The notes below the pieces were generated by a model, which made no database searches, was not told the DNA's origin, and worked only from the letters and a program-made list of their open reading frames with translations. From Planctomycetia bacterium (GTDB taxonomy: Bacteria > Planctomycetota > UBA1135 > UBA2386): a stretch of 47,377 bases of DNA. The position numbers and the translations under genes are program-made. Positions 36,987-47,377 of the stretch are shown here, in pieces. How positions within the stretch are numbered: the stretch's first letter is position 1; each line of letters starts with the position of its first letter. The stretch spans positions 1-47,377 of the forward strand of contig SXPK01000181.1 in the NCBI GenBank assembly GCA_005776365.1, in the 5' to 3' direction.

Positions 36987-37036
36987 CCGATCGCGCGCGC
37001 GACTGTTGCGCGAGTCGCTATGCTCGCGCGCCGTTC

Positions 37037-37948
37037 ATGACGCAGTGCCCCTCGTTCGCCCCGCAGCTCTGGCTGCTCTCGTTGAACCTGATCTGGGGCG
37101 TCAGCTATGCAGCGGTCAAGTTCGCGCTCGATCGCGGCCTGCAGCCGTTCGCTTTGATGACGGCACGCTTCTGGCTTGCGTGCCTCTGTCTCTTGCCCGT
37201 GGTCGCTCTGCGCGAACGGGACCGCCTCGCGGGCGCCGCGGCGCGCGGCGTAGTGACGGGGCTGGCGCTGCTGCTCGGCTACGTCTTGCAGACCTACGGC
37301 ATGCAGCAGACGACGGCTTCGATGGCCAGTTTCCTCTCCGGCCTCATCACATTGCTCGTCGCGCTCGGAGGCTGGCTCGTATTCCGCGAACGGCTCACCA
37401 CGGCGACCGTGCTCGGACTGCTGCTGGGATGCGGGGGGCTCGTGATGATGTGCCTCTGCGCCGAGGCGGAAGGCCCCGAACGCAAGGACACTGTGGCCGG
37501 CATCCTGATGCAGACCGGCGCCGCCGTCAGCTTCGCGTGCCACATCCTGCTGATGTCGAGATGGTCAAGGAGAGGCGAGGAGTTTGCATTCTGTTGGTGG
37601 CAACTCGTGGCGGTCGCCGTGGGAGCCAGCATCGCCTTGCCATTGTCCGGTGGGGCGCCTGGCGCCTGGACGCTGCTGTGCGAACCCTGGATCGTCGGCA
37701 GCATCGTCTACCTCGCCGTGTTTGCGCTCGCGATCGCGCTCGTCGTGCAGAGTCGGATGCAACCACGCATCAAGGCGACCCAAGTCGCGGTGATCTTCGC
37801 GACCCAACCACTGTTCGGGGCGCTCGGTGGCATGGGACTTCTGGGCGATCAGCTCGACACGAAAGAATGGATCGGCGGCGCGATGATCACCGGCGGTGTG
37901 CTGATCGCCGAGTTGCTGAGAACGCGCGCGCCTTCGCAGCAGAACTGA
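37037..37948 (+). CDS. DMT superfamily transporter (EamA/RhaT-like, 10 TM)
   Basis: 303 aa with two EamA-like halves (LNLIWGVSYAAVKFAL.. and ..ATQVAVIFATQPLFGALGG). Confidence 0.85.
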   Translation: MTQCPSFAPQLWLLSLNLIWGVSYAAVKFALDRGLQPFALMTARFWLACLCLLPVVALRERDRLAGAAARGVVTGLALLLGYVLQTYGMQQTTASMASFLSGLITLLVALGGWLVFRERLTTATVLGLLLGCGGLVMMCLCAEAEGPERKDTVAGILMQTGAAVSFACHILLMSRWSRRGEEFAFCWWQLVAVAVGASIALPLSGGAPGAWTLLCEPWIVGSIVYLAVFALAIALVVQSRMQPRIKATQVAVIFATQPLFGALGGMGLLGDQLDTKEWIGGAMITGGVLIAELLRTRAPSQQN

Positions 37949-38015
37949 TGCTGCACGGGCGACCCGCCCAGATCGGGCAAATCGTCCCACTGCCGAGCAC
38001 AGTTCGGTTCTCGCT

Positions 38016-38513
38016 GTGCCGAATCAGGGCTGCTCGACCATGCGCCTCGACCAAGCAGCTCTGCACGATGACCCCGTGGCCGTTCGCCAAGCGGCACAGT
38101 CAGGGATGTCCCTGGTCGACTTGCTCACCGGAATGGTGATCGCGGTGCTGCTGATTGGCGCCGCCTTGATCGGCGTCACGCAGCATCAGGCGCAACGTCG
38201 CGTGCACGGCGAACAGATCCTCGCGATGTCCGCGTGTCGCAACATGCTGGAAACCCTGCGCAGCGTCGACATCGCCACGCTGCCAACGCTCGACGGGCAG
38301 GACTTCGAGGTGCTCGGCCAGAACGGCCAGACGCGCGGCCTCACACCGGTCGAAGGCGATCCCGACGGCAGTGCAGGAGAGGTCTCGGTCGTCGCGCACG
38401 CACGCAGCCAACCCGCCAACCCCCTGTATGTCGTGACAGCGCGAGTGCGATGGCGCGGGGCGACTCGCGGCGGCAACCTCGCGATGCAGACCTTGATGGG
38501 AGAACGGCGATGA
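38016..38513 (+). CDS. Prepilin-type N-terminal domain protein (pseudopilin-like, degenerate motif)
   Basis: Leader ..AAQSG followed by MSLVDLLTGMVIAVLLIGAAL, i.e. G/MSLVD, with Asp at the usual Glu5 position. The start is GTG 38016 or ATG 38040. The stop overlaps the next start (ATGA). Confidence 0.65.
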   Translation: MPNQGCSTMRLDQAALHDDPVAVRQAAQSGMSLVDLLTGMVIAVLLIGAALIGVTQHQAQRRVHGEQILAMSACRNMLETLRSVDIATLPTLDGQDFEVLGQNGQTRGLTPVEGDPDGSAGEVSVVAHARSQPANPLYVVTARVRWRGATRGGNLAMQTLMGERR

Positions 38514-39124
38514 ACCGGCAAGCGGGCTTCACCCTCGTCGAACTCACTCTCGTGGCCGCGCTGCTGGCCATGATCATGGCGGGCGTAGCCTCGTTCCTTG
38601 GCGCAGCCACCACCAGCATCCGACTCGACGACAACATCGCGGTCGCGATGGAGTCGCTGCAACGCTCCGCGATCCGCGTGTCGCAGGTCATGCGGCCCTG
38701 CTCCATCTCGACTTATCGCGTGCAGTCGACGCCAGCCGATGTTCCGGCCGCGGCAGCTGCCGAGGGCCTGTGGATCGAGCCGGTCGACGGCGACGCACGA
38801 GCGGCGATCTTGTTCCGCTCGGCTACGGGCGAGTTGTCGCTCAACGCGCAAGAACTCACCGAACCGCGCTCGTTTCGGATCCAACTGGAGCCGGGCGAGA
38901 ACGACAACGACGCAGACGACGATGGCGACGGCCTCATCGACGAAGGCCGACTGATGATGGACTACGACGGGATCCCCGTGGCGCTCGCGTCCAACCTCGA
39001 GGCCGCGACCTTCACGTTGACCGGTCGATTGTTGACCATCCGAGTGCAGTCGGCCGCGCGCACGCGCGCCGGCCTCGTGCAGCGATTCACCGCCGAAGAA
39101 GTGCTCTACCTGCGCAACAACTGA
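38510..39124 (+). CDS. Prepilin-type N-terminal cleavage/methylation domain protein (pseudopilin)
   Basis: MNRQAGFTLVELTLVAALLAMIMAG is a canonical G/FTLxE motif (204 aa). It contains an acidic loop, ENDNDADDDGDGLIDEG. Confidence 0.8.
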   Translation: MNRQAGFTLVELTLVAALLAMIMAGVASFLGAATTSIRLDDNIAVAMESLQRSAIRVSQVMRPCSISTYRVQSTPADVPAAAAAEGLWIEPVDGDARAAILFRSATGELSLNAQELTEPRSFRIQLEPGENDNDADDDGDGLIDEGRLMMDYDGIPVALASNLEAATFTLTGRLLTIRVQSAARTRAGLVQRFTAEEVLYLRNN

Positions 39125-39131
39125 GCTAGCC

Positions 39132-40229
39132 ATGCACACGCTTCGAGAGAGTCGGGATGAGCAGGGCTTCGCGGCCATCCTGTTCGTACTGATCCTGGTG
39201 CCCGCCTTGATCGTGATCGGCAGCTACGTCCAGTCGATGACGGAACGCAATCAGCGTTTGCTGCTCGAGACGCGCGAGGAGCAAGCGATGCTCGCGGCGG
39301 AGTCAGGCATCGACTACTCACTGAACGAGGCGCGTCGCGGCACGCTCATCGCAGGGATCGGGGCGAGCTACACGTTCACCGACACGCTGCCCGATGGCAG
39401 CGTGTTCACGACAGTTTGCGTCTATCTCAAAGGCGACGGACTCGACAACGACTCCGACGGCAGCATCGACGAAGCAGACGAGGACGTGTTCCGCGTCGTC
39501 AGCACCGGTGCAACGCAGAACAGCCGTCGCCGCATCGCGGCCTATCTCGGCTTCTCGAGCTACTTGCCGGAGCTGGAAAGCGCGATCACCGTCACCAACC
39601 CCGACGTCTCGATCACCATCAGCGGGTCCGCTCGCGCCGACGGCCGCAACTACACGCTGCTCGGCGCCCTCATGGGATCCGGCGACACCTACGGAATCGC
39701 CATCACTCCGCCGGGCGATGAGAACGACCTCGACTCCGAGCTCAGTTGGAGCGAGGAATCCAAGGTGCTGGGCACCGGCGGCTCAGGGAGCTATGGCGAG
39801 GCGAACCCCTTCGACGTCGCAAAGTTGGTCGACTTCGCGCGCAATAGCGCCAGCGTCGTCATCACCAATACCAACGTCAGCTCCGTGACCTACGGCTCCG
39901 CTGCCGCGCCCGTAGTTGCCTATCGCGAAGGGGACGTGCGCATCCAGGGAAACTCCGCGGGCTGGGGCCTCCTGGTCGTGAACGGCACGTTGCGGCTCGC
40001 AGGCACCTTCGATTGGTATGGAGTCATCATCTGCACCGGCTCGATCGAGTGCGGTGCCGGCAACGCCCGCGTCCTCGGCGGCATGGTCCAAGGCCCTGAT
40101 GGGGCGGCGATCACCATGACTGGCACGATCGATGCGCGATACTCCTCGGCAGGCGTCGACCTGGCGGCTCAACTCACCGGCCGATACGTCGCGTTCAACG
40201 GCTGGCAGGAAATCTCAACCAACAACTGA
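39132..40229 (+). CDS. PilX_N-like minor pilin/pseudopilin-associated protein
   Basis: N-terminus RDEQGFAAILFVLILVPALIVIGSY is PilX N-terminal-like. Acidic loop GDGLDNDSDGSIDEADED. C-terminal WGLLVVNGTLRLAGTFDWYGVIICTGSIECGAGNARVLGGMV. Confidence 0.65.
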   Translation: MHTLRESRDEQGFAAILFVLILVPALIVIGSYVQSMTERNQRLLLETREEQAMLAAESGIDYSLNEARRGTLIAGIGASYTFTDTLPDGSVFTTVCVYLKGDGLDNDSDGSIDEADEDVFRVVSTGATQNSRRRIAAYLGFSSYLPELESAITVTNPDVSITISGSARADGRNYTLLGALMGSGDTYGIAITPPGDENDLDSELSWSEESKVLGTGGSGSYGEANPFDVAKLVDFARNSASVVITNTNVSSVTYGSAAAPVVAYREGDVRIQGNSAGWGLLVVNGTLRLAGTFDWYGVIICTGSIECGAGNARVLGGMVQGPDGAAITMTGTIDARYSSAGVDLAAQLTGRYVAFNGWQEISTNN

Positions 40230-40230
40230 G

Positions 40231-41439
40231 ATGGCAAGACAGGAAGCACGCGTTCGGGCTCGTCACCTTGCACGCCACAATTGGTCGCGTCGCATTGCAG
40301 CAATGCTGATGTGCGCGTCGCTGGGCCTTTTCGGCCTCACGCTGCTCCAGCGCGGCGTCGACAGCGCAGCTCGCCGGCCAAGCTCCGCATCGTCCTCTGA
40401 GCTGCGCCAACTCGGCGCGTTGCTGGAGCCGCTCCGCGCATACGTGGCGCCGGCTCAACGCATGGCTGCCCTCGAACGAGCGCGCCCGCGTCTCGAGGCG
40501 CTGCTGTCCGCGATGTCCATCGTGCTCTCGCAACCTGCGCACCCGCTGTTTCCCGACGTGGCGACAGCTGCTGCAGACCTGAGGATCGAGGATCTCGAAC
40601 CCGCGTTGCGCTCTTCGCTTGTCATCGCTCGCGGCGAATCCCTGGCAATCGCCTGGACCAGCGTCGACAGACTCCAGCCCATCGGCGAATCCGAAATCGT
40701 GGCCTTGCTCGAGGCGCCGGACCACGGATTGACCATCGCCGGGCTTCGCATCGCATCGACGCGCGATCCACTGCCGGACTCGCTGGTAGGCGCCATTCTC
40801 GGTTGCGTTCGCAGCGGCGACCCGCGGATTCGCATGTTGGCCATCTCCTGCGTGCCAGGAGAACTGGATCCATCGCACACCGACATGGTGCTGGATCTCT
40901 GCGACGAAAACCCCGCCGACGCCGGCATCGCAGCGCTTCTCGGCCGCGTGCCACCAAGCGAACGCGGACTCGAGTGCCTGCTGTCCCGCGTGCAAGGAGC
41001 CGACGCAGATACGATGACGAGGCTGCAGCCAGCCATTCGCCGCTACGCCGGGTTGGAGCCCATCCGCAAGGCGCTATGGGAAATCGCCACCGACCTCGAC
41101 GACATCGACCGCGCTGCCCGCGCCATGCACTGCCTCGAGATCGCCGGCGAAAGGGAACCAGCTTCCGCCGTCCCGAGCTCGTGGCCACTGCGCCTGCAGT
41201 ATGGCCTCGCACGCATCCGAGTGGCCAATCGCGAACTCGCCGGCATCGACGCGCTGCTGACGGTCGCCGCTGTCGACGACACCGCGGCAACAAGAGACCC
41301 CGAGACCGTGCGCGATGCTCGCATCGCGCTCGCCGCCCTGGCCCGGCTCGCGCCGCATGCGACGCTCGAAGAACTCCGCGCCTGGCGCAACACGATCGTT
41401 GCAGTGCCCGACGAGCCGCTACCCACACCGTCGCGCTGA
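40231..41439 (+). CDS. Membrane-anchored hypothetical protein, helical-repeat (HEAT-like) ectodomain or cytoplasmic domain
   Basis: I chose the start at MARQEARVRARHLARHNWSRRIAAMLMCASLGLFGLTLL (402 aa), 1 nt after the previous stop. The repeat assignment is tentative. Confidence 0.55.
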   Translation: MARQEARVRARHLARHNWSRRIAAMLMCASLGLFGLTLLQRGVDSAARRPSSASSSELRQLGALLEPLRAYVAPAQRMAALERARPRLEALLSAMSIVLSQPAHPLFPDVATAAADLRIEDLEPALRSSLVIARGESLAIAWTSVDRLQPIGESEIVALLEAPDHGLTIAGLRIASTRDPLPDSLVGAILGCVRSGDPRIRMLAISCVPGELDPSHTDMVLDLCDENPADAGIAALLGRVPPSERGLECLLSRVQGADADTMTRLQPAIRRYAGLEPIRKALWEIATDLDDIDRAARAMHCLEIAGEREPASAVPSSWPLRLQYGLARIRVANRELAGIDALLTVAAVDDTAATRDPETVRDARIALAALARLAPHATLEELRAWRNTIVAVPDEPLPTPSR

Positions 41440-41466: not shown

Positions 41467-44400
41467 TCAAGGCAGCGAGAAGGCCTCGCTCCTTTCGACG
41501 CCATCTGCCGCATAGTCACCCAGCTCGAACACCAAAGCGCGATAGTTGCGCACATCGAGCACGGCAAGGGACTGAATCGCGCGCAGCGACACGAGCTCGT
41601 TGCGCAACTCGTGGCCTTGACGCCAGCAGGAGTCCAACCGCTGCGCGACAAGGGCGAGCAGATCGCGTTCTTCGCCGGCCTCATGCATCGCTTCGACCCG
41701 GCGCCGCACCTCGCTGTCGCGCATGCACGCCAAACGCAACCGACTACGAGCCGCGGGCGACAAAGGCGACACGCGCGACGCGCACCAACGATCGACTGCG
41801 TCGGGATGCCACCGTCCACGAAGCCGCCACCATGTCGCGCGCAGGAGTCCTGGCAACTCGCCATCACGCAGCAAGGTCGGCAACTCGGATGCTGACCATG
41901 CAGCGGCATCGAAGAGCGTGCGCACCCGATCGCGGTCGGTCATCCAAGCGATCGTGACGGCAAGTTCTCCGTCGCGACGGACTTCGGATGCCGCGCCAAG
42001 GTCCCCCACCCTCGGCAGCCAACGCAATGCCTCGCGCAGTTGCAGCACATGTCGTCGATTGGTGTCGGCCGCGGCAAGCAGCGTCGCGCGCTCCCGCTCG
42101 TGAACTCTGAGGAAGTCGAGGTCGCGCTCCAACTGTGACGCCGCTTGCTCAGCCACGCCGACGAACGATGGGCTCGCTCCGCAATAAGTCGGATCGACGC
42201 AAACGCGCAGACGAGTCGCCTCGAGCAGACCAGGCGCCTTCATGCGATGGATCTTGCGCATCGCGACCGCGAAGGTCGCGACCGGCGCCGTGCGTCGCTC
42301 CATTTCGAGCCGCGGTGCGACAACCTCGCGGACGATTTGTCGGACGCGCACTACGGACCAAAACACGCCGCGCAACACACGCAAAGGCACCGCCAAAGGT
42401 GCGAGCAAGACGCGACCATGCGACCAGCGCGACCAGTAGCTGCGCCATGGATTGAGCGTCTGCAGCACTCCGTCGACATTCTCAGCGGCGCGCATGCCGA
42501 AGATCGTGCGGATCATGTGTCGCCGGTCCGATCGCAGCGCAGCGAGCACATCAGGGCCGAAGGTCCGCTCGACGTGAGCATCGCGTTCCGGCTCGGCTGC
42601 GAGGAAGTGGAGCGCATGAAACTCAGTCGTCGCCAATCCCGCAGATCCGACCTCGGCAGAGAACCGTTCGATCGTGCGCCCGTGGCGTTGGTCCTTGCGC
42701 GAGCGCAACCAATCGGCCAGCAGCCGCTCGCGTTCAGGCGACAACGACGCGCGCTGGGAGAGCGGCACACAGCGGCGGTTGTATTCGAGCAGTCTCTTGC
42801 TGACCTCGACCGCGATTGACTCGGTGATGAAGCGGAACCACAGATACGGCCCGCGGAACACCGACCCATCGTCGAGTCGAAGTGCGCGAAGGCGCTTTCT
42901 GTCCTTGCGCGTGTGCCCGAGGTGCAGCAGCCGCAGGTTCTCGAGCGAGAGGTTTGCGAGGATCTGCTCCGTTGTCTTGACGTCACTGTCGTGCAGCAGC
43001 GCGCCACCGAGAAAGTGCAGGTAGAGGAGAGCAACGCGGCTCGCGAGTTGCTCTTGCGCAGCGTCGAAGTCATGCAAATCGACTGGAACCCCTGCTCGTG
43101 CGCCGCGGATCTGCCCTGACAACAACTCGCTCGTTCGAATCGGCGCGCAATCTTCGATCGTGCGCCGGGCAAGGAAGGCTGCGTCTTCCGCCTCATGGCG
43201 TTGCTTCTGCAATCCAAGCAATGCGACGAAGTGCGCCTCACTCGTAAGACGGAACGTCTCGCTGGCCTCGCCAGCAATGCGCTTGAGCCACCAACCGGTG
43301 ACGAGAAACACCAGGCAGACGCTGCCCAGCAGGAGCAAGGGCATGCCGACGATCGTGGAGAGACAGTTCTCTTCCCAGAACAGACTCAACACAGAGAACA
43401 AGCCGCCGAAGAAGAGCAACCGCACTGCCGGCCGCTGACTGGCCTTGACCATCGCCGTTGCGATCCGGTCCAAAATCTGCGGTCCCGTGACGATGCCGTG
43501 CAAGTCGGCAAAGAACTGGAGGCGATCCTGCCAGAGCATCAGCCAATCAGCGATGCGTCTGCCGAGCGCCGCGACGCGTTCTTCCGCCGTTCTGTGCCAG
43601 CCGCGAAGACAGAAGGAAGAGAGCAAGGGCAGCCAACGCAACGGTGGCGCACTGATCAAGCGCAACATCCGGTCGAGTGAGCGGATCTCGGACGAACTCA
43701 GGGATCGCGCGACGTCTTCGGCTCGCAGCGACCACAAGAAGTCACATGCGTCGTCGACCGCAACTTCGCGCGATGGCGGCATGGTCGCGACGCCGGTCCA
43801 CGCGCCACGGAATGCGTCAGCACGCTGGATCGCGTCAGCCAGCGCTTCGCCTGCCGCCGCGATACCTGCAGCGCCTGGCATCGACTCCAACTCGACGCGC
43901 TCGAGCGCCAGCGCCTTTGCCAAGAGTTCCTGCTTCGCGTCAGGCTCACCGCGTTCGGGGTCCGCCGCACCGAGAAACACGATGGTCTGATCGAGCACTC
44001 CGCGAAAGCGGCGAACCGAGGCGTCCATCCCGCGCACGAGCAACAACAGGAGCCGCGCGAATCGCAGAGTCGGACGCAGGATTTGCAGCCCTGATGCGGC
44101 AGCGCCCATGCGGAACAGGCGCAACAAGCGAATGGCAATCGCGTCGCCGGCATGCGTCGTCGCCACGGGTATCGGCAACAGCAACAAGACCGCCGGGATC
44201 GCAGGCAACAGGTCCGTCAGTGCGTTGCGCAAGAACCACGATCCCCTGCGGTCCGACAGCGACAACTTGAGTGCGAACTCGCCGACGAACCAGCAGCCCG
44301 CGGCTGCATCGAGTGCATTCGCCCATTCCAGCGCCTGCTCGCCCATCGACGATGATTGGGCGACCAGGGAGCCGATCACTACGAAGAGCAACCAGAAGCT

Positions 44401-45114
44401 GATCGAGTCGACGGCCGCCGCGCCGCGCCGGGTCAGCAGTCGCTCGAGTCTTGCTTGCAGTCGCAGATCGGATGCCGCCGCTCGCGCCCGACGCACACGG
44501 CGTCGCAAGCCGCGATCCAGAAAGCGGGTCGCGATCGACTCCAGCAGTGCCGCCTGGTCATCGAGTTCGCGGGCATCCGTCTCTGGGTCCGCGCCATATT
44601 GAGTGAACTGGTGCGCAGCCCAGCGCTCGTCCGCCTCCCGGCGCACCGCCTCGACGTCGACGACCAGCAAGGCGCGTCGATCTCGCTCTGCGCCCACGCG
44701 CGCCGCTGCCTCGGGGTCGCCTTCGGAAGCGAGCGACGCCGATGCGTCCGCCGCCTCGAACAGCGCGTCGATGTCGTCGTCCGGCGCAGTCTCGGCATTG
44801 CGCGCACGCAGCGCCGCGAGCGAACGCCGCGCGGCTGCCATCTGCTGCGGGTTGGCCCCAACCTGCGAACCGCGTCGAAGCAACCAACGCAACTCGGCGT
44901 CGAGATCGTCGCCAGCGCCAGCGGTGGAACGAGAGAGCTCGCGGCGAAGGCAGAGTCGTTCTGTGCGCAGGGCGGGATCCGCCGAGTGCGCGTGCAGAAC
45001 TTCGCGCAAGCGCGCGATCAAAACGCTCGAGTCACCTTCCACGCAGTCGGGAGCCGAACTGTCGGTGGACAGCAGGGCGACGCGCAGCATAGGAACGCGC
45101 CGCCGCCGGGACAC
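41467..45114 (-). CDS. 1215-aa membrane protein with a voltage-sensor-like S1-S4 domain and a large uncharacterised cytoplasmic region
   Basis: Residues ~233-365: S1 VDSISFWLLFVVIGSLV; S2 LDAAAGCWFVGEFALKL; S3 FLRNALTDLLPAIPAVLLLL; S4 IRLLRLFRMGAAASGLQILRPTLRFARLL (Arg at roughly every third position). There is no adjacent pore loop. Two further TM helices lie ~230 aa later (LLFFGGLFSVLSLFW / MPLLLLGSVCLVFLVTGWWL). Confidence 0.75.
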   Translation of the reverse strand: MSRRRRVPMLRVALLSTDSSAPDCVEGDSSVLIARLREVLHAHSADPALRTERLCLRRELSRSTAGAGDDLDAELRWLLRRGSQVGANPQQMAAARRSLAALRARNAETAPDDDIDALFEAADASASLASEGDPEAAARVGAERDRRALLVVDVEAVRREADERWAAHQFTQYGADPETDARELDDQAALLESIATRFLDRGLRRRVRRARAAASDLRLQARLERLLTRRGAAAVDSISFWLLFVVIGSLVAQSSSMGEQALEWANALDAAAGCWFVGEFALKLSLSDRRGSWFLRNALTDLLPAIPAVLLLLPIPVATTHAGDAIAIRLLRLFRMGAAASGLQILRPTLRFARLLLLLVRGMDASVRRFRGVLDQTIVFLGAADPERGEPDAKQELLAKALALERVELESMPGAAGIAAAGEALADAIQRADAFRGAWTGVATMPPSREVAVDDACDFLWSLRAEDVARSLSSSEIRSLDRMLRLISAPPLRWLPLLSSFCLRGWHRTAEERVAALGRRIADWLMLWQDRLQFFADLHGIVTGPQILDRIATAMVKASQRPAVRLLFFGGLFSVLSLFWEENCLSTIVGMPLLLLGSVCLVFLVTGWWLKRIAGEASETFRLTSEAHFVALLGLQKQRHEAEDAAFLARRTIEDCAPIRTSELLSGQIRGARAGVPVDLHDFDAAQEQLASRVALLYLHFLGGALLHDSDVKTTEQILANLSLENLRLLHLGHTRKDRKRLRALRLDDGSVFRGPYLWFRFITESIAVEVSKRLLEYNRRCVPLSQRASLSPERERLLADWLRSRKDQRHGRTIERFSAEVGSAGLATTEFHALHFLAAEPERDAHVERTFGPDVLAALRSDRRHMIRTIFGMRAAENVDGVLQTLNPWRSYWSRWSHGRVLLAPLAVPLRVLRGVFWSVVRVRQIVREVVAPRLEMERRTAPVATFAVAMRKIHRMKAPGLLEATRLRVCVDPTYCGASPSFVGVAEQAASQLERDLDFLRVHERERATLLAAADTNRRHVLQLREALRWLPRVGDLGAASEVRRDGELAVTIAWMTDRDRVRTLFDAAAWSASELPTLLRDGELPGLLRATWWRLRGRWHPDAVDRWCASRVSPLSPAARSRLRLACMRDSEVRRRVEAMHEAGEERDLLALVAQRLDSCWRQGHELRNELVSLRAIQSLAVLDVRNYRALVFELGDYAADGVERSEAFSLP

Positions 45115-45144
45115 GCGCCGCCTCGCGGACGGCGCAGGTTTGCT

Positions 45145-46068
45145 TCACCAGGGACGCCGATAGAGGCGCTCGTCAGCTGCCCGAGCACCGAGGTCAGAGA
45201 ATCGGAGCTGATGCTCGGTCCCCAGCCCGTCGTTGCCTGAGACATCGAGTCGAACGATCGTGCCGCTCTCCTCGCAGCACACCACTTCGGCGCGCTTGAG
45301 GCAGAAACCGGGACGAGCCGGCGCTCCCGTGGCCTCGATGTGGACGAGGCATCGTCCGTAGGCGTCCTGGGACCGCTTCGTGGTCTTCAGTGCAAAAGTC
45401 TTGGGCAACTGCGTGACGAATGCGTGCACGTCCAAGAGCCCCATGTCGAGCACGCTGCCGATGCCGCGAAGGAATGACGGAGCCTCTTCGAGCGGACCTG
45501 CGCGGCGAATCGGTTCACCCGAGGGGCCTTGCGGGGCTTCGAACCAGAACTCATTCCCGTCGCAGCCAAAGCGCATCTCGTCGAAACGGATCGGGCCCAG
45601 CTGCAAGGCTCCGTGCACGACGAATCGGCGGCCTGGGCGCATGGTGAGCTCGAGGTCTTGCATTGGCTTCGCATGCCCGTGGGCGGAAGTCTGCAGGGAC
45701 ACGGCAAAGCAACGCTCGCCCTCCTCCCGCAGCAGACTGGCGCCGCGCATGACGGACGCGTGCGCCTCGGGCAACGGCTCACCGAAGACAGTCGGCCAGA
45801 AACACATCCCGACGATCAGCGACGCTGACAGCACGAGGAGCATCCGGTGCGGCTTCGACTGCGGCCGGCCCCAACTCAGCGCGATCGGCCGCGGATCGCC
45901 TAGCTTCGAGGTGATGCCGCGAATCGTGGTTTCCAGCGTCGCATTCTCAGTGCGCACAGCACGCATGACGCCGTCGACAAAGCGCTGTCGGGCGGTCCAT
46001 TCGCGCAACGCCAGGTCATCCGGCGATGGCGCATCGCCGCCTGAGAGATCGGTATCGTCGTTTTGCAT
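45145..46068 (-). CDS. Single-pass membrane protein, putative anti-sigma factor partner of the upstream ECF sigma
   Basis: Its position is 72 nt downstream of the ECF sigma gene. Short cytoplasmic N-terminus, a TM (MLLVLSASLIVGMCFWP) and a ~210-aa extracytoplasmic domain. No zinc-binding HxxxCxxC motif is seen, so the call rests on context. Confidence 0.5.
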   Translation of the reverse strand: MQNDDTDLSGGDAPSPDDLALREWTARQRFVDGVMRAVRTENATLETTIRGITSKLGDPRPIALSWGRPQSKPHRMLLVLSASLIVGMCFWPTVFGEPLPEAHASVMRGASLLREEGERCFAVSLQTSAHGHAKPMQDLELTMRPGRRFVVHGALQLGPIRFDEMRFGCDGNEFWFEAPQGPSGEPIRRAGPLEEAPSFLRGIGSVLDMGLLDVHAFVTQLPKTFALKTTKRSQDAYGRCLVHIEATGAPARPGFCLKRAEVVCCEESGTIVRLDVSGNDGLGTEHQLRFSDLGARAADERLYRRPW

Positions 46069-46140
46069 GGCCTGGGAGTGAGGTCCTAGGTGGTCGTCGG
46101 AGTGAGCCGACGGCGCGGATCAAGGGGAGTCGCCCGTCGA

Positions 46141-46689
46141 TCATCCACCCTTGCGCAACAACGCTGGGGGCGAAGGCATCCGGCTTTCCATCTCCCGCAG
46201 GAGGGCCGCACGCCCTCGCTGCATGTGCTTTTTCACTGCTTCTGTGCCCAGCCCGAGTCGTGTGGCGATCTCAGCGCAGGACATATCTTGTTCATAGTGT
46301 AGATCGAGAACCTGCCGCTGGAGCGGGGTGAGGCGCGTCAATCCAGTGCGAAGGGCGTTTACCCTCTCCTCAAATGTGTCGCCCGACGCCTGGTCGAGGC
46401 GATCGAATTGCCCTTCCAGCGCCTGCAAGTCCTCGGCTTCCAAGTAGGTCACCTTCGAACGACTCTGCTTGCGCCGGTAGTTCCACAGCAGACGGCTCGC
46501 GATGCCACGGACCCAGGGGCCAAACGGCAATGTGCGGTCGTAGCGGTCGAGGTTCGACCACGCGACGAGGAAGGTCTCCTGCACGAGGTCCTCAGCCGGG
46601 GCCGCGTTGCGAATCGATGCGAGCAAGAATGCGCGCACAGAACAGATGTGCTCGCGAACGAGCACTTCGAATAGGTGCTTGGGATCCAA
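46141..46689 (-). CDS. ECF-type RNA polymerase sigma-70 family factor
   Basis: Region 2 (DLVQETFLVAWSNLDRYDRTLPFGPWVRGIASRLLWNYRR) and region 4 HTH (LHYEQDMSCAEIATRLGLGTEAVKKHMQRGRAAL). Confidence 0.9.
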   Translation of the reverse strand: MDPKHLFEVLVREHICSVRAFLLASIRNAAPAEDLVQETFLVAWSNLDRYDRTLPFGPWVRGIASRLLWNYRRKQSRSKVTYLEAEDLQALEGQFDRLDQASGDTFEERVNALRTGLTRLTPLQRQVLDLHYEQDMSCAEIATRLGLGTEAVKKHMQRGRAALLREMESRMPSPPALLRKGG

Positions 46690-46986: not shown

Positions 46987-47377
46987 TCAGCGACCGAGAG
47001 CCGCGAGCACGCGTGCCTTCACTTCGTCGGCAGTGCACTCGCTCTTCTGCATGCCCTTGCGCACGAGGAACTCGACGCCGCCTTCGGCTGCCTTGCGTCC
47101 GACGAAGACCTGCACCGGGATGCCGATGAGCTCGAGGTCCTTGAACTTCGCGCCGGGGCTCATCGGGCGATCGTCGATGCACACGTCGAGGCCAGCGGCC
47201 TTCAACTCGGCGAAGAGGCTCTCCGCGAGCGCGACCTGTTCATCGCGCTTGGGATCGAGCATCGCAACGACGCACTCGAACGGAGCAATCGAAGCGGGCC
47301 ATACGATTCCCTTGTCGTCATGGTGCTGCTCGACGGCAGACGCTGGCGTGCGCGACACGCCGATGCCGTAGCAACCC
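46987..47377 (-). CDS. proS: Prolyl-tRNA synthetase, C-terminal anticodon-binding part (partial; continues beyond the window)
   Basis: The reverse strand from the window edge reads GCYGIGVSRTPASAVEQHHDDKGIVWPASIAPFECVV..DDRPMSPGAKFKDLELIGIPVQVFVGRK, the conserved ProRS C-terminus. Confidence 0.85.
   Translation of the reverse strand, partial: GCYGIGVSRTPASAVEQHHDDKGIVWPASIAPFECVVAMLDPKRDEQVALAESLFAELKAAGLDVCIDDRPMSPGAKFKDLELIGIPVQVFVGRKAAEGGVEFLVRKGMQKSECTADEVKARVLAALGR

Follow-up and report, generated by a model that had tools for sequence, protein, structure and literature searches.

What would a voltage sensor be doing beside a bacterial sigma factor? The question is raised by a stretch of 47,377 nucleotides (nt) from a Planctomycetia bacterium (contig SXPK01000181.1, assembly GCA_005776365.1), called here the window. 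At 41467..46689, three open reading frames (ORFs) follow one another on the minus strand, separated by gaps of 72 and 30 nt. They encode proteins of 182, 307, and 1215 amino acids (aa): an extracytoplasmic function (ECF) sigma factor; a putative anti-sigma factor; and a large protein containing what a preliminary description, made from the DNA letters, read as a complete S1–S4 voltage-sensor domain (VSD). The co-directional order and the gaps given there agree with the ORF positions. That description went on to suggest membrane-potential-linked signaling through the sigma pair.

The answer favored here is that the large protein is a pore-less VSD family protein which, in the window's clade, is a co-expressed output of the ECF sigma/anti-sigma operon. 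Taken as a whole, this reading has about an even chance of being right. As judged by sequence, the protein belongs to an uncharacterized family with six transmembrane (TM) helices, confined to Planctomycetota within the searched data. Its S1–S4 region is homologous to known VSDs, it contains no recognizable pore, its gating charges and counter-charges are conserved family-wide, and its models are of high confidence.

Scanned whole, the large protein matches nothing in Pfam or NCBIfam, with no Ion_trans (PF00520) match at E≤1. Scanned alone, residues 220–400 match PF00520 at residues 236–351 with an E-value of 1.1e-4, though at 21.9 bits this lies under the gathering cutoff of 25. The alignment spans positions 5–120 of the 241 in the profile, which is the S1–S4 half only. 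A profile of 38 full-length relatives, compared with all PDB sequences, gave 33 matches at E≤1, and 32 of these are voltage-gated channels (Kv, KCNQ, and Nav). The best are Kv4.2 (7e7z; E 1.8e-4) and Kv2.1 (2.3e-4); the alignments cover S1–S4 and the first turn of the S4–S5 linker only. A phmmer search of PDB with residues 220–400 found no match. Matches to Kv, Nav, and Cav channels were obtained for the S1–S4 domain in both sequence and fold searches. Hydropathy makes S1 and S3 visible, together with hydrophobic helices at residues 561–581 and 582–614.

The hallmark residues are present as well. The charge-transfer motif comprises an acidic residue in S2, a Phe seven residues on, a second acidic residue three further, and an Asp in S3 (D269, F276, D/E279, and D301, in the numbering of reference sequence P0001, which is used for all column counts). 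This D-7-F-3-D/E spacing equals that of the Shaker charge-transfer center. Among 119 close relatives, residue 269 is Asp in 116 and Glu in three; F276 and D301 are found in all 119, D/E279 in 112, P304 in 118, and P307 in 119; and in S4, R329 is found in 119 and R332 and R335 in 118 each. The pattern extends to 129 wider relatives, with D269 kept in 128, E/D279 in all 129, and Arg at S4 positions 329, 332, 335, 338, 341, 344, and 347 in 90, 100, 111, 89, 116, 101, and 86, respectively. Most relatives keep up to seven S4 arginines in register. Together, the matches to the amino-terminal half of PF00520, the Kv/Nav/Cav matches in sequence and fold, the S4 arginines, the Phe-centered motif, and the acidic S2 and S3 residues identify S1–S4 as a genuine voltage-sensor domain by homology, with its charges under selection. 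The preliminary description was therefore right to place a complete VSD at residues 233–365 (44020–44418), and the Pfam check that it had proposed for this region returned the match given above. The motifs that it quoted are all in the translation: GEFALKL at 278–284; LTDLLPAIP at 299–307; IRLLRLFRM at 328–336; and LRPTLRFARLL at 346–356.

Past S4, no profile or structure match was obtained; the PDB-profile alignments stop at S4 or the linker. The S5–P–S6 half of PF00520 is matched in none of the 22 proteins with a hit (the window protein and 21 wider relatives), whose alignments end at profile positions 107–130 of 241. TM5 starts about 200 residues after S4, with about 190 residues between the linker helix and TM5. 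TM5 and TM6 pair as a hairpin whose connecting loop has about 6 residues (from hydropathy, with model helices at 529–562 and 569–624), and a loop of this length cannot form a selectivity filter. In structure searches with the models, TM5–TM6 drew generic long-hairpin matches only. No pore module is thus recognizable in the large protein, as the preliminary description had said of the region after S4. Its outline of the remainder was right about the second TM pair and the roughly 600 helical residues after TM6; the spacer before TM5, which it had put at about 230 residues, measures about 200.

Could the protein nonetheless be an ion channel or transporter? It would then be an oligomer with a TM5–TM6-lined pore lacking a P-loop, or its VSD would itself conduct protons or cations; in either case S4 would be the gate and the cytoplasmic domains would be regulatory. 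The proposal is unlikely. In its favor, the protein has exactly six TM helices, in the order S1–S4 plus two, as in the voltage-gated channel superfamily; the stretch resembling an S4–S5 linker can be aligned with Kv2.1 and Kv4.2; conserved small residues abound in TM6 (G597, G607, and C600), pointing to tight helix packing; and some members are named "ion transporter" in databases. Conduction through a VSD alone is known for Hv1 and for the isolated Shaker VSD (PMC5092046). Those database names, however, stem only from the partial Pfam match, and a pore is further disfavored by the unmatched S5–P–S6 half, the short TM5–TM6 loop, and the long insertion that precedes TM5.

What, then, would the sensor be attached to? 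An AlphaFold2 model of residues 16–1215 is all-alpha, with a predicted local distance difference test score (pLDDT) of 83.7 and a predicted template-modeling score (pTM) of 0.82. A second model, of residues 375–1215 from a more diverse alignment, reached 88.7 and 0.86, respectively. In the model, S4 continues into the cytoplasm as one 46-residue helix, followed by a linker domain (about 180 aa, ending in FFADLHGIVTGPQILDR), the TM5–TM6 hairpin, and an all-alpha domain. Predicting the structure of the whole protein and comparing it with Foldseek, a check suggested in the preliminary description, produced no fold relative: with both models, nothing in PDB was found at E≤1e-3, and only long spurious solenoid alignments appeared. 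The VIA-align lists, for which the fold was searched only inside models of 841–1200 residues, were filled by generic long-hairpin matches. The carboxyl-terminal domain has no Pfam, NCBIfam, PADLOC, or PDB-profile match; the post-VSD profile matched one designed protein only in PDB (E 0.16); and ESM Atlas gave no usable match for residues 620–1215, and for relative P0215 gave only Ion_trans leads below 0.9. Phosphatase, exchanger, and coiled-coil families were not matched in Pfam scans of the whole protein and four parts, and NCBIfam likewise gave no PTEN-like phosphatase domain after the VSD. One candidate phosphatase loop, a C-x5-R sequence at C782, was dismissed: its Arg is not conserved, and it lacks the His/Gly context.

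The family is sizable. By word-indexed search, 191 relatives were recovered at full length (about 1200 aa, with 41–79% identity) from Planctomycetota metagenome-assembled genomes (MAGs). A profile of the post-VSD region (residues 375–1215) retrieved 614 representatives clustered at 50% identity, of which 330 have E≤1e-30; among the 150 representatives listed, nearly all are 1150–1650 aa long with the match in the last 800 residues. The amino-terminal half of PF00520 is present in 21 of 28 sampled wider members, above the 25-bit cutoff in 8. Because these members were found with the post-VSD profile, the sensor and the cytoplasmic module travel together. The family occurs in 58 of 301 evenly sampled genomes of the phylum and in 48 of 230 genera, mostly as one copy each; the window's own genome (65% complete) has one copy. 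Named members come from Tautonia, Paludisphaera, and Aquisphaera (cultured Isosphaeraceae) and from strain Pan216, and are annotated as "ion transporter" or hypothetical.

Planctomycete labels are attached to 70 of 77 species-representative loci; another 6 are labeled "bacterium" only, and 1 is binned as Luminiphilus (Gammaproteobacteria). This last member lies on a 2.7-kb contig (JBERSB010000506.1; L042) and is probably a binning error, not evidence of transfer. In a few sampled genomes the gene is split or contains internal stop codons (G157:C1:650215-652418, G132, G108); these may be pseudogenes or assembly errors.

The two upstream genes agree with their preliminary assignments. The 182-aa protein matches Pfam Sigma70_r2 (2e-12) and Sigma70_r4_2 (9e-13), and scores 78.4 bits against NCBIfam TIGR02937, above the cutoff of 42.9. 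Its best subfamily is TIGR02989 (Rhodopirellula/Verrucomicrobium ECF), at 111 bits under a cutoff of 124.55. These profile matches confirm an ECF sigma factor (group 4 σ70; about 180 aa with regions 2 and 4 only). In 42 loci, a sigma orthologue with 53–77% identity precedes the large gene.

For the 307-aa protein, scans of Pfam, NCBIfam, and PADLOC returned no family. Its layout, seen across 37 homologues, is a cytoplasmic amino terminus with conserved residues W24, Q28, R29, H32, G33, and R36; one TM helix; and, in the periplasm, a conserved domain of about 210 aa whose last residues are RPW and which itself has the look of a sensor. None of the 37 homologues matches a recognized anti-sigma Pfam family (zf-HC2/ZAS, RskA, and others) at a meaningful E-value; one RskA_C match was at 0.041. 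Complex prediction with the sigma factor and residues 1–72 of the 307-aa protein gave a score of 0.85, compared with 0.46 for the best control. Of 157 solved complexes, 116 attain that mark, as do 2 of 215 mismatched pairs. Three runs share at least 82% of contacts, with partner pLDDT of at least 72. In the modeled interface, residues 22–57 lie between sigma residues 4–44 (region 2) and 128–167 (region 4), which is the predicted classic anti-sigma binding mode. Since sigma/anti-sigma complexes have already been solved, the score partly reflects likeness to them, and the binding is a predicted one. The most likely role of the 307-aa protein is that of the cognate anti-sigma factor, predicted to hold its sigma factor between regions 2 and 4.

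How firmly is the large gene tied to this pair? Linkage was counted at 57 loci with at least 1.8 kb of upstream sequence. Both sigma and anti-sigma genes lie upstream on the same strand in 40; the sigma gene only in 2; and neither in 15, including all 4 informative loci of a sister clade with 31% identity. The pair thus accompanies the large gene in 40 of 53 informative loci of the clade of about 1200-aa proteins and in 0 of 4 in the sister clade. Across the wider family in other planctomycete families, neither a sigma nor an anti-sigma homologue was found within the examined flanks of 19 loci, and the neighbors there are mutually unrelated, with no conserved partner. (A Na/sulfate symporter gene lies upstream twice and an MscS-type channel gene once, judged anecdotal.) Linkage to sigma genes, expected from the preliminary description to recur in other genomes, therefore holds within the one clade and fails beyond it.

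On a tree of the post-VSD region, loci with the pair occur all over the ~1200-aa clade, and those without it are dispersed among them, which requires at least 8 changes; this fits one acquisition followed by repeated loss or separation. Five genomes with an unlinked large gene were searched for the anti-sigma gene: two have a homologue elsewhere, and three have none (these are MAGs, so absence is not proven). In one of the two, the full pair lies on a separate contig, and the 1.5 kb after it contain no large gene. At four loci (L062 and L066–L068; proS at L066:4190-5998), proS borders the large gene directly and the sigma pair is absent, a picture that would fit insertion of the pair into the proS-to-large-gene junction, or its deletion from there.

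Where the three genes stand together, their order is conserved across the clade. Between the sigma and anti-sigma genes the median gap is 17 nt; in 14 of 39 loci the two genes overlap by the 4 nt ATGA, a sign of translational coupling. The gap between anti-sigma and large genes has a median of about 45 nt; 33 of 40 fall within −60 to 150 nt, and the outliers are 182, 247, 373, 433, 823, 2372, and 2965 nt. The widest of these, about 3 kb and about 2.4 kb in L014 and L069, suggest that something has been inserted there.

A promoter-like motif, TGTCCC-N14-19-GACAAT, occurs exactly once per locus in 33 loci (L006–L059; for example L011:4394-4421), upstream of the sigma gene only. It ends about 9 nt before the sigma GTG codon; judging from this position, the transcript would have little or no leader and may be autoregulated. 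In the window and its three closest relatives (L003–L005), the upstream sequence is different, with a shared CTTAT(T/C) directly before the start codon.

Do these arrangements mean that voltage is an input to the sigma factor? The large protein would sense a change or collapse of membrane potential and act on the anti-sigma factor in the membrane, freeing the sigma factor. This is improbable, although several features are in its favor: the gene order has been kept through about 40% divergence of the large protein and over the whole clade tree; spacing is tight; the anti-sigma factor and the large protein are both in the inner membrane; and third genes of ECF operons are sometimes co-regulators. 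What weighs against it is distribution. The family is far wider than the linkage, and linkage has been lost at least about eight times within the clade. The unlinked genomes speak the same way, both the three with no anti-sigma homologue and the one with a pair that adjoins no large gene. The anti-sigma factor, moreover, has its own conserved, sensor-like periplasmic domain. Thus the conserved order and tight packing behind the proposal of membrane-potential-linked sigma signaling are real features of one clade, and the pair is missing at every wider and sister-clade locus counted.

Co-expression under sigma control is the simpler reading. Because linkage is limited to one clade, the core function of the large protein would be independent of the sigma pair; and because the family is much wider than the linkage, the pair was probably recruited upstream of an already existing gene. 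The zero counts in the wider and sister-clade loci, together with the three genomes lacking an anti-sigma homologue, indicate that the large protein is most likely a co-expressed output of an envelope response, not its sensor.

This suggests a model in which a change in membrane potential would move S4 of the large protein, and the S4 extension, with the TM5–TM6 anchor, would relay that motion to the cytoplasmic assembly. This conserved mass is the likely recipient and would act as an effector or scaffold. Coupling would be electromechanical, to a non-channel module, as in voltage-sensing phosphatases (VSPs). In the window's clade, the large gene would be the third cistron of an ECF sigma/anti-sigma operon; the anti-sigma factor would sense through its own periplasmic domain, and the sigma pair would then control large-gene expression. 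Both the potential-driven movement of S4 and its transmission we infer from homology and models. A stronger version is tentative, with somewhat less than an even chance: that this is the first prokaryotic family of VSD-coupled non-channel proteins, in which a canonical VSD with up to seven gating arginines uses a rigid S4 extension to drive a new cytoplasmic effector, all-alpha and about 800 residues long, one clade being wired into an ECF operon.

Several points weigh against the output model. Co-transcription of the large gene with the sigma pair is deduced from spacing alone. The sigma-type motif is missing from the 400 nt upstream of the large gene in 11 of 11 unlinked loci, so these loci offer no evidence for sigma control in trans. 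TM5–TM6 in an oligomer, or the VSD itself, may form a pore. About 800 conserved cytoplasmic residues have no assigned function or known fold relative. The window protein itself keeps only R329, R332, R335, and R347 of the seven S4 positions (the others being A338, S341, and Q344), and its own clade has Trp and Gln at two of the lost positions. Finally, pLDDT is below 50 over the S3–S4 loop and the amino-terminal half of S4. (This stretch corresponds to window 44059–44163, residues 318–352, and takes in the half of S4 that bears the charges; elsewhere in the protein, confidence is high.) The drop in pLDDT could reflect alternative S4 positions, or merely a weak alignment signal.

The lost arginines and the low-confidence S4 could also be taken to mean that the S1–S4 bundle is a relic, no longer voltage-sensing and just a membrane anchor for the cytoplasmic assembly, much as the S1–S4 of some ligand-gated relatives no longer senses voltage, but this is quite improbable, since the first three S4 arginines, the Phe, and the three acidic counter-charges are (near-)invariant in the 119 close relatives and strongly kept in the 129 distant ones, a pattern beyond what a membrane anchor would need.

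Coordinates of the three-gene unit, the domains of its proteins, and the upstream neighbor are collected below. The large ORF is counted from a GTG codon; the database copy begins at M9 and has 1207 aa. Full proS orthologues hold the same upstream position in relatives (for example L005:2397-4229). Other neighbors in relatives include two unnamed conserved proteins, one of about 145 aa encoded before the sigma gene in 33 loci (for example L008:3782-4222) and one of about 285 aa encoded beyond the large gene, on its downstream side, in 32 loci (for example L011:10197-11117). Neither has a Pfam match, and neither was found in the compared stretch of the window. Downstream of the unit, an ORF at window 38234–39124 on the plus strand has a prepilin-type amino-terminal methylation motif (PF07963, 1.9e-6); the ORFs neighboring it, within window 37006–41439, have no Pfam match.

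Table. Features of the three-gene unit and its upstream neighbor, in window positions.
Feature	Position	Strand	Basis
ECF sigma factor, 182 aa, regions 2 and 4 only	46141..46689	(-)	Pfam and NCBIfam
Anti-sigma-like single-pass membrane protein, 307 aa	45145..46068	(-)	37 homologues aligned; complex prediction
307-aa protein: predicted sigma-binding helix region, aa 22-57	45898..46005	(-)	Predicted interface; conserved columns
307-aa protein: TM helix, ~aa 74-96	45781..45849	(-)	Hydrophobic stretch kept across 37 homologues
Pore-less voltage-sensor-domain protein, 1215 aa (or 1207 aa)	41467..45114	(-)	ORF, GTG start
Large protein: amino-terminal cytoplasmic helical-repeat domain, ~aa 29-198, poorly conserved	44521..45030	(-)	
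Large protein: S1-S4 voltage-sensor domain, aa 233-365, including start of S4-S5-linker-like helix	44020..44418	(-)	
Large protein: cytoplasmic linker domain, aa 375-540, ending in near-invariant motif FFADLHGIVTGPQILDR	43495..43992	(-)	Invariant alignment columns; pLDDT mostly >80
Large protein: TM5-TM6 helical hairpin, aa 561-612, periplasmic loop ~6 residues, no re-entrant P-loop	43279..43434	(-)	Hydropathy and model
Large protein: carboxyl-terminal all-alpha cytoplasmic domain, aa 641-1215, highly conserved	41470..43194	(-)	Model
proS (prolyl-tRNA synthetase) 3' end, upstream neighbor	46987..47376	(-)	Pfam HGTP_anticodon 3.7e-16

Together, these results describe a bacterial family of hundreds of sequence clusters that joins a canonical sensor to a large, confidently foldable, unrecognized cytoplasmic module. 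If the sensor works, the family would add a natural case of electromechanical coupling to those known, and it might offer a handle on bacterial responses to membrane potential. If the VSD indeed drives an effector, planctomycetes would read membrane potential directly, and voltage-dependent gene control would be possible in one clade. For that clade, the sigma factor, the unnamed anti-sigma family, and the conserved promoter-like motif provide a defined regulatory context. Members in cultured Isosphaeraceae and in strain Pan216 make the question testable.

The literature searches made turned up no paper on bacterial pore-less VSD proteins. Neither the main text nor one supplement of the paper that reclassified ECF sigma factors (PMC7826278) mentions ion transport, voltage, or PF00520; its other supplements could list such a context.

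The sigma side of the locus has familiar counterparts. Pairs of an ECF sigma factor and a single-pass anti-sigma factor, co-transcribed with extra genes, include SigW-RsiW, SigV-RsiV-OatA, and RpoE-RseABC. The window's locus resembles these in its two-region sigma factor, its single-pass protein with a predicted sigma-binding amino-terminal helix, its coupling, and its third gene. It differs in that the anti-sigma factor matches no described anti-sigma family, and in that the third gene encodes a voltage-sensor protein.

The VSD itself resembles those of voltage-gated K+, Na+, and Ca2+ channels (Kv4.2, 7e7z; Kv2.1, 8sda and 9o10; NavMs, 6sxc): S1–S4 with Arg at every third S4 position; the Phe-centered charge-transfer motif; acidic S2 and S3 residues; the start of the S4–S5 linker; and six TM helices in total. 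Unlike these channels, the large protein has no detectable S5–P–S6, carries its insert of about 190 residues after the linker helix, uses TM5–TM6 as a plain hairpin, and includes about 225 amino-terminal and about 600 carboxyl-terminal cytoplasmic residues with no fold match.

To our knowledge, the known pore-less VSD proteins (VSP, Hv1, HVRP1, and SLC9C1) are all eukaryotic. Hv1 consists of a VSD alone, with a selectivity Asp in mid-S1 and a carboxyl-terminal coiled-coil; the large protein, by comparison, has about 1200 aa and two more TM helices, and its conserved S1 acidic residue, E/D236, sits at the cytoplasmic end of S1. From Ci-VSP, Hv1, HVRP1/TMEM266, and SLC9C1 (pore-less VSD proteins are treated in PMC4148356, PMC10620092, and PMC13661669) the large protein differs in being bacterial, in its two extra TM helices, and in an effector without known relative that matches no phosphatase, exchanger, or coiled-coil. 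Like them, it joins a VSD without a canonical pore to a non-channel module, and the principle that S4 controls an attached domain is likely common to both. We take the planctomycete family to be, in principle, a bacterial counterpart of the VSD-coupled non-channel proteins.

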